Positions 9,178 through 51,998 of a stretch of 64,000 nt of DNA are shown one piece after another. A program made the translations under genes and the position numbers. A model generated the notes under the pieces. That model was not told where the DNA came from, did no database searches, and worked only from the letters and a program-made list of their open reading frames with translations. This DNA is from Octopus vulgaris (taxonomy: Eukaryota): the NCBI GenBank assembly GCA_951406725.2, contig OX597833.1, positions 53,196,001-53,260,000 of the forward strand, in the 5' to 3' direction. The stretch's first letter is position 1. Each line of letters begins with the position of its first letter.

Positions 9178-9384
9178 AGGGAGAGTTTACGAAAAAAAAC
9201 AAAAGACGAAGACAGGTGGTGTACAAAACAAACAGATGTATTAGTATAACGCTCAGGAATAGAAAAAGTCTTTTACGTTTCGAGCCTACGCTCTTCTACA
9301 GAAAGGGACACAGAAAAGAACAAGGAGAGAAACAAAGAGAGAAAAAAATGTGTGTAGTGGCTAACGATCTATCATAGCGACTGA

Positions 9385-9421: not shown

Positions 9422-9650
9422 GTGATATAATATAAAATATATATGCATACATACAAACATATATGTACGTACCTACATCTACATGTATATATACATGCAT
9501 ATATAAATAATTATACGTGAGTACAGGACACCACAATAAGACGTAGAAACGGGAAAATCAAAAAAACAAAAAACAAGAAACCGAAAAAACAAAAAACAAG
9601 AAAACGAAAAAAACAGTTACAGGACGTGCTACACAAGGAAAAAAAACCCG

Positions 9651-9721
9651 TCATCAGCTGTCGCTAGTAGAGTCAAGCATGTTTCGAAGGCAGAGACAGA
9701 ACACTAATCTACTAGGCCTTC
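9651..9721 (-). ncRNA. Non-circularly permuted hammerhead ribozyme candidate, copy 1
   Basis: GAAGGC CTAGTAGA TTA GTGT T CTGTC TCT GCCTTC GAA ACAT GCTTGAC TCTACTAG C GACAG CTGATGA; four helices; same architecture as 50967-51039. Confidence 0.7.
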
Positions 9722-10079
9722 CTGCGAGAGAATTAAAATAAAATTCCAAGCAGCGGGGCAAAATGAGTACGAACACGAACAGGACGTAACAATAAAACTG
9801 CAAATATATATATATATATATTCGTTCTATTATTATTTGTTCGTTCCCCTCTGGGCTATGAAAGGTCTTTGTATACTTTTGTTGGTCGTAATTGTTCATA
9901 CCAATATGTAATTCCTGACGAAGAATCTAATTTTAATTTCAAGAAGAGCTTTTCGTTTTAGTCTTTTTGAATTAAATAGACTCCCAAACAATTTGTAGAA
10001 TTTATATTGGATTTGTACCAACTTGGATTATGAATTGAAGATCGTCTATACCTACATTGTTTTTCTTTCCTTATACTTC

Positions 10080-10814: not shown

Positions 10815-11310
10815 CATGGAGAAGCAAAGGTGTAGGCCGTAAAATGAAGCTGAAGTTGTTCAAGACATTGGTCCGACCAGCACTACTCTACGGATATGAA
10901 AACTGGAAAATGACAAAAATGAAAGGAAAAAAAATCAATGGACAGCTTCCAATTTACATATATATATAAAATACTCAACATCAAGTGGCAGCAAAGAATC
11001 CGAAATGGCACGATTGAGACGACAACGGGCATTAACAAAAACTGACGAAATAAGACGTTGGTGCTGGAACTGGATCGGACGCGACTTCAGACGAGATCGA
11101 GAAAGCAATTGAATGGTGACACTTAACTGGCAACCTGAAGGAAAAATAGCAGTAGGGCGTCCCAAAACTATATGGTGAAGGATGATTGACGAGGAAAGGA
11201 GACGAGAAAGGTGAAACTGGAATGAGACCAGAACAGTAGCAGAGAACAGAAAACAGAGCTGATCGTAGAGGTCGTGTTGCGGCCTTATGTTCTTCATAGT
11301 ACAAAGAGAA
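10815..11310 (+). mobile_element. Decayed RTE-clade LINE 3' end
   Basis: KMKLKLFKTLVRPALLYGYENWKMT ... DEIRRWCWNWIGR ... LNWQPEGKIAVGRPKTIW; matches the RTE motifs LLYGxETW, RRWxWIGH and WxPxGxRxxGRP. Confidence 0.85.
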
Positions 11311-32081: not shown

Positions 32082-32488
32082 AAGGCGGCGAGCTGGCAGA
32101 ATCGTTAGCATGCCGGGCGAAATTTTTAGAAGTATTTCGTCTGCCGCTACGTTCTGAGTTCAAATTCCGCCGAGGTCGACTCTGCCTTTCATCCTTTCGG
32201 GGTCGATAAATTAAGTACCAGTTACGCACTGGGGTCGATGTAATCGACTTAATCCGTTTGTCTGTCCTTGTTTCTCCTCTCTGTGTTTAGCTCCTTGTGG
32301 GTAGTAAAGAAATAGGTATTTTATCTGACGTTACGTTCTGAGTTCAAATTCCGCCGAGGTCGAATTTGCCTTTCATCCTTTCGGGGTCGATTAAATATGT
32401 ACCTGGGGTTGATATAATCGACTTAATCCGTTTGTCTGTCCTTGTTTGTCCTCTCTATGTTTAGCCCCTTGTGGGTAGTAAAGAAATA
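32082..32488 (+). mobile_element. SINE family B, head + two tandem bodies, with a 19-bp target-site duplication
   Basis: GGTAATTGTGTC(A/C)AAAGAT at 32063-32081 and 32489-32507. Confidence 0.9.
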
Positions 32489-39799: not shown

Positions 39800-40390
39800 T
39801 ATTTCTTTATTGCCCACAAGGGGCTAAGCATAGAGGAGACAAACAAGGACAGTCAAAGGGATTAAGTCGATTACATCGACCCCTGTGTGTAACTGGTACT
39901 TATTTAATCGACCCCGAAAGGATGAAAGGCAAAGTCGACCTCGGCGGAATTTGAACTCAGAACGTAACGGCAGACGAAATACCTATTTCTTTATTACCCA
40001 CAAGGGGATAAACACAGAGGGGACAATCAAGGACAGACAAAGGGATTAAGTCGATTACATCGACCCCAGTGTGTAACTGGTACTTAATATATCGACACCG
40101 AAAGGATGAAAGGCAAAGTCGACCTCGGCGGAATTTGAACTCAGAAAGTAGCGGCAAACCAAATACTTATTTCTTTACTACCAACAAGGGGCTAAACACA
40201 GAGAAGACAAACAAGGACAGATAAAGGGATTAAGTCGATTACATCGATCCCAGTGTGTAACTGGTACTTATTTAATCGTCCCCGAAAGGATGAAAGGCAA
40301 AGTCGACCTCGGCGGAATTTGAACTCTGAACGTAGCGGCAGACGAAATACTGCTAAGCATTTCGCCCGGCGTGCTAGCGATTCTGCCAGC
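39800..40390 (-). mobile_element. SINE family B concatemer: one head + three tandem bodies of about 183 bp
   Basis: Units at about 39800-39982, 39983-40166 and 40167-40350; head at 40351-40390. Confidence 0.9.
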
Positions 40391-50023: not shown

Positions 50024-50966
50024 ACACCGTCTCTTGTTTCACGCCTATCGTTATATCAACCAGCATCCATCCGTCACTTTAGACGTTAAGTATGTTACTA
50101 ATGTTACTACTACTAAGTCTCCTACAAGCCTATAACAAGCCTCTACTAATAACCAAGTTTTGACACTGTTATTTCACACGTTGACATCATCAATACCACT
50201 GTTTGCTGTTGTTTTTGTTCTTGCTGATGTTGTTGTTGCTGCTGCAGTTGTTGTTGTTTGTTTTTGTTTTTGTTGTTATGACAACTTGACTCGTCATCTC
50301 ATCCGTTGACCAACCGACGTCACATGCCATCACGGTTCCACTTTTTTTTTTGTTATTCTTGCTAATGATAGCAGCGTCAAGAAACTTAAATATTCTCGGC
50401 TGTTATGGTTATGCTAATGGTGCGATACTCGTGGAGGTGGTCGTGGAGGGTTGTCGTGGTGAAGCGGCGGCGGAGGCGGAGGCGGCGGCGGCACCGGAGG
50501 TTGCGCTTCTTTCAAGAGTCATTTGCTGTTGTCATACCACATCCTTTCCTTCTCGACACACACACACACACGAGTGTGTATGTGTTTTCTTTTTGTATGT
50601 ATTTATGTATGCATATGTGTGTGTGTATCTCTCTCTCTCTCTCTTTGTTTCCTTTGCCCCCTTTCTTTTTTCTCTCTCTTCTCTCACATGACCGCTGGTC
50701 AAAATCAGCCTTTTGGCCTCCGACCACTGCCGTGAGAACATCGTTGTCTTCGTCTGCCGATAAAGGCATTTTTTTTCCAAATACGCCAGCTAAACTTGTT
50801 GTACTGTTTATTAGTCGTAAGACACCCGCTGTTTTTGTCCTGTTTTACCATTATTGTTTTTTGTATTTTATATTCGTGTGGCATCGTCCGTTTTTCTGTC
50901 CCTGTTTCGTATACATTCGATCCTTCTTCCGAGAAATCTAATGCTCGTAGCTTAGTTTTTCCTTGG

Positions 50967-51039
50967 GGCTGGCCGGATCGGAGCGATCTCAAGATTAATC
51001 AGCCGAAATTGCTAGGATGATCCGGTTCTTGACTGAAGA
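50967..51039 (+). ncRNA. Non-circularly permuted hammerhead ribozyme candidate, copy 2
   Basis: GGCTGG CCGGATC GG AGCGAT C TCAAGA TTAA TCAGCC GAA ATTGCT AGGAT GATCCGG T TCTTGA CTGAAGA; AUC triplet at 50986-50988. Confidence 0.75.
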
Positions 51040-51122
51040 TTGAAGGCTTCGAATGTCCCGTCCGTGTTTTTTTTGTATCATCTTCTAAATGTTTTACGTT
51101 CTTGTCCCAGTTTGTATTTTTC

Positions 51123-51480: not shown

Positions 51481-51592
51481 AAAATGGGACAAGAACGCAA
51501 AAAATCCAGAAGACGATACAAAAAAACACAGACGTGTCATTCGAAGCCTTTAATCTTCAGTCAAGAACCGGATCATCCTCTCAATTTCGGCT
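51481..51592 (-). mobile_element. Inverted partial copy of the element at about 51001-51125
   Basis: Reverse complement AGCCGAAATTG..AGGATGATCCGGTTCTTGACTGAAGATT.AAGGCTTCGAATG...CGTTCTTGTCCCA. Confidence 0.85.
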
Positions 51593-51594
51593 TA

Positions 51595-51998
51595 CGGAGA
51601 AGAAGCGGCGAGTAAATTTCACATCTGCGCAATTTTCTGATTTTCGTTCAAATCGTGTGGTACTCATTTGTCGAGCTTTTTGATTTTCCAATCGCATGCA
51701 AATAGTTGCAGGCAGTTTTCTATTGTCAGTTTCGAGTGGTTTTACGTGGATCTTTCTCAATGACGGCCTATAATTGATCGTCGTCGATGACAGATAGGTG
51801 TCCACTACGCTCGCGATCTTCAAGGCTCAGGTCTCCACTGCGAAATCGTTTAAACCATTTTCTAGTTGATCACTCACTGGTCATTTCCCCACCAAACGTT
51901 TTGTTGGTGTCGCGAGCAGTTTCAGCTGCTTTACGTTTTTTTTTTTTTTTGAAGTTGAACAGCAAAATTGCACGAATATCGCGCTTTGACAGTTCCAA
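51595..51998 (-). pseudogene. Mariner transposase N-terminal half (Hsmar1/cecropia-like), disrupted
   Basis: ELSKRDIRAILLFNFK..RKAAETARDTNKTFG...KWFKRFRSGDLSLEDRERSG..VIDDDQL*AVIEKDPRKTT...*VPHDLNENQK (WVPHEL motif decayed). Confidence 0.9.

Follow-up and report, generated by a model that had tools for sequence, protein, structure and literature searches.

A candidate hammerhead ribozyme opened inside its catalytic core in Naiad retroelements and retrozyme-like octopus repeats

The minus strand of a 64,000-nt stretch of the Octopus vulgaris genome (contig OX597833.1; hereafter the window) carries a hammerhead motif in which every part of the catalytic core is present but in permuted order: the 5' strand of stem II lies upstream of the cleavage site, which leaves an opening in the chain between A9 and G10.1. 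Judged from sequence, this is probably an active hammerhead that breaks the scheme of six block permutations, is opened by a four-way junction within the core, and would be the overlooked ribozyme of many Naiad retroelements as well as of tens of thousands of retrozyme-like copies in molluscs, cnidarians and crustaceans. The split motif likely cuts tandem transcripts of the Naiads and of the octopus host repeat.

Hammerheads have been divided into three blocks, C, G and S, whose permuted types SGC and CSG are described as cleaving in vitro (Eckert et al. 2023, PMC10085705). Type SGC typically has a 3-nt link between stems I and II, and a fourth helix joins its other strands; in the passages of that paper compared here the blocks are taken to be uninterruptible, the known alignments having no more than 1-2 nt inserted beside CUGAnGA. 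The ribozyme is thus a known one and the SGC/CSG cycle is published; what appears to be new is the split core with its opening at A9/G10.1.

Results

The motif was proposed in an earlier note on this DNA as a 71-nt scrambled hammerhead. We locate it at 9721-9651 on the minus strand, as claimed, but these bounds are too short: with two further helices, stems IV and V, the full motif runs from 9757 to 9647 (Table 1). Its 5'-to-3' order is stem II 5' strand, P, 3 nt, stem III strand and GUU; then stem I strand, 3-nt link, stem II 3' strand, GAAA and stem III strand; and finally 7 nt, P', 1 nt, stem I strand and CUGAUGA (9657-9651). This is the S-G-C block cycle with all parts present in the sequence, which bears out the proposed non-circular order. 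All of the proposed pairings hold as well (stem II, 6/6 Watson-Crick; P, 8/8 Watson-Crick; stem III, 4 bp with one G-U; stem I, 5/5 Watson-Crick), as do the canonical CUGAUGA and the GUU triplet, whose H17 is position 9700 and after which, by analogy with other hammerheads, the RNA is predicted to be cut. The 6-bp pairing that the note read as an outer helix is real, but it is stem II itself. Since stems IV and V are predicted to close the opening in the core, the fragment that the note had picked for a cleavage assay (9635-9730) misses the 5' strands of both.

Table 1. Features of the split motif and of its host repeats in the window.
Feature	Position	Strand	Basis or remark
Family A copy, 5'-truncated, 392 bp, fixed 3' end at (TA)n	9427..9817	-	97% to natural unit L003
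Stem IV 5' strand, CCCG (5-6 bp in most copies)	9754..9757	-	pair probability 0.74-0.79
Hairpin V, abutting stem IV and G10.1	9722..9753	-	9/10 pairs at p>=0.94
Stem II 5' strand, G10.1 = 9721	9716..9721	-	6 Watson-Crick pairs; covaries with 3' strand across families
P helix 5' strand (corresponds to the stem I-II interaction helix of type SGC)	9708..9715	-	8 bp
Stem III 5' strand and GUU; predicted cut 9700/9699	9700..9704	-	sequence; cut site by analogy
Stem I strand after the predicted cut (CUGUC) and 3-nt link to stem II	9692..9699	-	29/30 copies
Stem II 3' strand, GAAA, stem III 3' strand	9679..9691	-	sequence; C11.1-G10.1 pair in 9/9 families
P helix 3' strand	9664..9671	-	pairing
Stem I strand (GACAG) and core box CUGAUGA, A9 = 9651	9651..9662	-	core boxes intact in 28/30 copies
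Stem IV 3' strand, directly after A9	9647..9650	-	flank folding
Family B, split-core layout with other sequence, 832-bp unit, AUC triplet	50922..51046	+	alignment, flank folding
Family B copy, 5'-truncated; GAAA and core, without cleavage block	51520..51597	-	sequence

The Rfam hammerhead models gave no hammerhead match at E<=10 in 9560-9800, where two weak chance matches were returned; a miss is expected from the permuted order. Among the 150 of 354 matches listed from an Rfam scan of the whole window none was a hammerhead, and almost all were microsatellite-driven miRNA models. Apart from this motif, the closest hammerhead-like repeat, at about 9301 on the minus strand, is of the minimal type I and has a variant core.

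How often such motifs arise by chance was gauged by running a descriptor on 139 random 10-kb stretches (1.39 Mb), with 20 local dinucleotide shuffles as the control. Eight S-G-C cores were found, six with an upstream stem II and P and none with a downstream stem II. The shuffles averaged 1.1 cores and 0.4 upstream-type matches (maximum 2), and the motif thereby came through the shuffle check that the earlier note had set, although the six real matches are not independent, as all belong to one clade and two are tandem copies. A profile search at E<1e-5 returned about 21 full or partial matches in the same 1.39 Mb (~15 per Mb), which extrapolates roughly to tens of thousands of copies in the genome.

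Nine families were then compared, seven of them as column-majority sequences (10-30 copies each) and two as single copies; in one of the nine, stem II has only 3 bp and was placed by hand. The invariant parts of a hammerhead are all there: the CUGANGA and GAAA boxes, A15.1-U16.1, the G10.1-C11.1 pair (9/9 families) and a NUH triplet (9/9, as GUU, GUC, AUC, AUA or GUA), together with covarying stems I, II and III. All nine families also have the P helix in other sequences, keep an asymmetric internal loop, and space GAAA from the core by 27-30 nt. Selection on the fold, as the earlier note had argued, is supported by the retention of stems I, II, III and P with different sequences in the nine families. 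Pairing within families reached 45/45 cells for stem I, 43/45 for stem II and 27/27 for stem III, against cross-family fractions of 0.65, 0.62 and 0.51; the nine families are related (three lineages), so that these covariation tests overstate independence. Within family A, 28 of 30 copies have both core boxes intact, and full pairing is seen in 28/30 for stem II, 30/30 for stem III, 29/30 for stem I and 18/30 for P, which is imperfect in the other 12.

The 43/45 cells for stem II refer to its upstream strand. By contrast, the strand that begins one base after the core, where type SGC would have it, pairs with the same partner in 29/45 cells, no more than across families. We repeated the comparison as a matched test, with the same 26-nt search window on each side and natural representative copies. 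The upstream side scored 46 against a permuted mean of 30.2 for the nine families (reached in 0 of 50,000 permutations), and with the six distinct partners its pairing was the best of 720 orderings, whereas the downstream side scored 26.0 against 25.8 (p 0.50). These results bear on the reading of the motif as an ordinary type SGC hammerhead, in which the G run one base after CUGAUGA would be stem II and the upstream GAAGGC a decoy or switch. Five related families can indeed form a 4-bp helix (two G-U) there after a 1-nt insert, and such an insert is described as typical of Penelope hammerheads at that step (PMC4209133). However, the downstream strand does not covary, makes 0-2 bp in the other four families, has a duplex energy of -3.3 kcal/mol against -8.0 kcal/mol for the upstream strand, and was met in none of the descriptor matches, while the G run pairs better as part of stem IV (-8.2). 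We regard this reading as very improbable. The motif shares with type SGC the order of site, GAAA and CUGAnGA, the short I-II link and the interaction helix, but its stem II 5' strand does not follow within 1-2 nt of CUGAnGA.

If stem II is formed by the upstream strand, the flanks of the motif must enter the core between A9 and G10.1. Only the two flanks were co-folded, unconstrained, and a junction was scored as flush when stem IV lay within 2 nt of A9, hairpin V lay within 2 nt of G10.1, and the two helices were adjacent. Twelve of 15 related sequences gave a flush junction, compared with 0.37 expected from shuffled flanks; the Naiad majority sequence of the host genome (G000) was among the three failures, and when flanks were exchanged between sequences, 19 of 42 cross pairs still scored as flush. 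Sister families differ by compensatory changes in both helices, G-C to U-A in stem IV and U-A to C-G in hairpin V. In the window copy, stems IV, V and II form with probabilities of 0.74-1.0, except for one terminal G-U of V at 0.4; the first four pairs of stem IV are intact in 26 of 30 family A copies, as is hairpin V (26/30). Nested folding retains IV, V and II and puts a competing hairpin in the stem II loop, but it cannot show P, III and I, which cross stem II; the stretch 9620-9740 is no more stable than its shuffles (z 0.98). From this modelling, the flanks are predicted to enter through a flush four-helix junction made of stem II, the A9-G12 stack, stem IV and hairpin V.

Two other accounts of the opening were dropped. 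A local hairpin after A9 fits fewer families than does stem IV formed with the 5' flank. Rescue by splicing, with the CAG before G10.1 as the acceptor joining A9 to G10.1, was abandoned because A9 offers no donor, the AG is absent in other families and hairpin V explains the GCAG.

The window copy of family A was previously taken for an element of about 300 bp (9500-9800). It instead measures 392 bp and is the 3' half of a 797-bp unit, and a CTGACGA at 9915 that had been called a degraded core falls outside it and fits neither descriptor. The unit is non-coding (longest ATG ORF, 43 aa). A search of the 2.8-Gb host genome (G000) gave at least 41 matches of 92-100% identity from 40 scored of 1518 candidates. 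Their 5' ends vary but their 3' ends are fixed, with (TA)5+ directly following in 23 of 26 located ends and the next unit following in the other three; a unit junction is crossed in 7/30 loci. Family B, at 50.9 kb, keeps the same structure in other sequence: it aligns with family A at only 55 of 127 motif columns, and BLAST of the family A unit against the family B unit gave no match. Its search yielded 2821 candidates in the genome. A tandem of eight head-to-tail copies lies on C6 at ~85.539-85.546 Mb (L140), with one spacing of 655 bp. The 5' truncations show no clear clustering at the predicted cut site: those of 5 out of 15 family B matches start between -3 and +15 nt of it, and the others are spread.

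The host repeat is thus a non-coding tandem unit of ~800 bp that ends at (TA)n and resembles a retrozyme. Copies longer than a unit and tandem copies are both seen in the genome, and the overall copy pattern is what target-primed reverse copying of tandem or circular RNA should leave behind, on the model proposed for Penelope-like elements in PMC4209133. Like the non-LTR retrozymes (PMC4209133; bioRxiv 10.64898/2026.07.22.740005), which are described as Penelope-linked, it consists of tandem non-coding units with one ribozyme motif each, and the length of the family A unit lies within their reported range of 51-972 bp. Unlike them, it carries the split permuted topology in place of the type I hammerhead by which they are defined; the type I descriptors that the 2026 preprint is described as using, to the exclusion of others, would miss it.

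The Naiads are Penelope-like elements that are reported to target (TA)n and to form partial tandems (PMC8557442, Craig et al. 2021). In that study Naiads are reported to be without canonical hammerheads, although eight 'half cores' are flagged ('HHR_core'/'HHR_half_core'); their absence is taken there as an argument that hammerheads may be no more than parasites of Penelope-like elements, and the cephalopod Naiads are called long inactive. The supplement of PMC8557442 was searched for four core words, words broken across lines being missed, and the matches were parsed by eye at 60 of 62 places for CTGATGA, 30 of 43 for CTGAAGA, 23 of 23 for CTGACGA and 15 of 25 for CTGAGGA, the rest lying after the Naiad file. 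At these places the split layout was recognised in 10 of 54 Naiad consensus entries, with unrelated stem II sequences: Obim, Ovul, Amil, Aacu, Anas, EuTe and four unnamed entries (parts 8, 9, 12 and 12), in one of which stem I has only 2 bp. Octopus, coral and clam shrimp are among the hosts. Stems IV and V can be read by eye in the coral, EuTe and three unnamed entries. Six more Naiad entries (parts 13-16), at least two of them from nematodes, show an intact type CSG hammerhead by eye, a type so far described from two metagenomic sequences. A part-16 entry (CTGAAGA place 12) appears by eye to have another split layout, in which the stem II hairpin directly follows the stem I strand and CUGAAGA comes last.

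In the host genome (G000) the motif of the octopus Naiads is found 218 times as an exact match, and its reversed form not once. One copy lies ~1.35 kb downstream of the end of an ORF that matches the published Naiad C-terminus by eye; a Pfam search with this C-terminal remnant gave no match, and no full-length Naiad was retrieved from the host genome. Family A resembles the Naiads (PMC8557442) in its (TA)n target, partial tandems, 3' motif position and split layout, but it lacks an ORF, and BLAST gave no match to the host-genome Naiad 3' region or to Penelope-like loci. It has neither an ORF with N-terminal GIY-YIG and RT nor homology to one, and what is common to both is limited to the RNA layout and the (TA)n target; BLAST against the Naiad and Penelope-like loci revealed no autonomous relative. 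A GIY-YIG search for an autonomous partner returned Penelope-like elements with a C-terminal endonuclease at 29 of 30 loci; none of these 29 has a split motif on its sense strand, and two Penelope-like loci carry a sister-family copy in inverted orientation. One such family, with a 781-aa RT and C-terminal GIY-YIG, has many intact frames in the host genome.

Discussion

In sharing the S-G-C cycle, the short I-II link, a fourth helix and all core nucleotides, the window motif resembles the SGC and CSG types (PMC10085705). It differs from them in opening inside block C, at A9/G10.1, by way of two extra helices, in having both P-to-III links closed, and in being a high-copy animal repeat. The 9/10.1 step is described as tolerating one extra nucleotide in viroid and Penelope hammerheads (PMC3705267; PMC4209133), and the (+) hammerhead of CChMVd has an extra A10 at this same step (PMC3705267). 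The insert here, unlike that of CChMVd, is not one nucleotide but two helices carrying the rest of the RNA, and the order of the CChMVd hammerhead is canonical. In the part of Perreault 2011 compared, core insertions are given as 1-2 nt only. Our literature search found no helix insert at A9/G10.1 and no permuted hammerheads in Naiads, and for type SGC it found only Eckert et al.; the variants of Weinberg 2015, cited in a 2026 paper among those with 'additional helices', may overlap. The earlier note is supported on the order, the predicted cut site and selection on the fold, but had missed both the published SGC/CSG cycle (PMC10085705) and the occurrence in Naiads.

On how the motif works we lean, by analogy with known hammerheads, towards each copy folding back on itself, forming a normal hammerhead core and cutting after H17 to free unit-length RNA. 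The RNA would take up a dumbbell fold with P and stem III as its rod. Loop 1 would hold the cut site, a stem I strand, the link, a stem II strand and GAA; loop 2 would hold the other stem I strand, CUGAUGA, the IV/V insert and the stem II 5' strand; and stems I and II would form between the two loops. Where the insert enters, IV would stack on V and stem II would keep its usual stacking on the A9-G12 pair, and the 3/7-nt internal loop would be the hinge at which the RNA folds back in cis. The 27-30 nt between GAAA and the core in all nine families fits such a cis geometry; Naiad_EuTe, whose P and III make up a single 15-bp helix bulged by 1 nt, should be unable to fold back in cis. Cutting after the GUU at 9700 would process tandem retroelement transcripts, two cuts freeing a unit-length RNA that could then be circularised. 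The circle might be copied by a Penelope-like RT/endonuclease into (TA)n, yielding insertions of more than a unit, as in the model of PMC4209133.

The same split core could instead work between two copies, in a reciprocal dimer where loop 1 of one pairs with loop 2 of the other; this would limit cutting to tandem transcripts and spare monomeric circles. By geometric reasoning, a straight P+III rod of any length is compatible with an antiparallel dimer. Read by eye, P runs almost unbroken into III in Naiad_EuTe, and the coral Naiads have a long III. The families do occur as tandems, and the minimal hammerheads of Penelope elements are described as acting as dimers in tandems (PMC4209133). A straight rod, however, has no need of the asymmetric internal loop and near-constant spacing that all nine families keep, and single-motif SGC/CSG constructs are reported to cleave during transcription (PMC10085705). 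We consider the dimer possible, if somewhat unlikely.

It is improbable, in our view, that the motif is a conserved non-cleaving structure derived from an intact CSG hammerhead, whether a recognition signal for the RT or a ligase or an inactive fold. A break inside the core is indeed unreported in the hammerhead literature compared, most genomic copies continue through the predicted cut site, and Naiads have spread well though reported to be without canonical hammerheads (PMC8557442). Yet all catalytic nucleotides, G10.1-C11.1 and a non-G H17 persist from family to family and phylum to phylum although the helices change in sequence, and read-through is equally expected from a re-ligated circular template.

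An active split hammerhead would break the stated rule that CUGAnGA and stem II are inseparable, in the best-studied ribozyme, and would carry non-circular permutations from a few hundred metatranscriptome contigs into animal genomes, at high copy. It would also offer a direct answer to why Naiads seemed hammerhead-free. Related Naiads carry the intact CSG type, which suggests that retroelements preserve the steps by which ribozyme permutations arise; with split and intact CSG in one retroelement clade, the origin of RNA permutations could be tested on a phylogeny. If a junction is tolerated at A9/G10.1, the step would be a new insertion point for ribozyme engineering.

Several further observations concern Penelope-like elements and other repeats. 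The 3' ends of the 781-aa family (L267, L272, L277, L279) carry a minimal type I-like motif followed by (TA)n, with UUGAUAA in place of CUGAUGA (C3U with G8A). At L277:125-1140 a sister-family copy of 1.3 units is joined on its 5' side to part of a Penelope-like ORF in inverted orientation, possibly a template switch pointing to the mobilising element. The window also holds five minimal type I hammerhead repeats of the Penelope type, at 9301 (-), 15783 (+), 60483 (+), 33526 (+) and 49425 (+), all with a 1-nt insert after A9 and three with U for A6 (CUGUNGA). Positions 10950-11150 resemble what we take to be the 3' coding end of an RTE-type LINE. Finally, a 312-bp inverted repeat pair (32092-32403 and 40079-40390), 90% complementary, lies in the window with its arms 7.7 kb apart.
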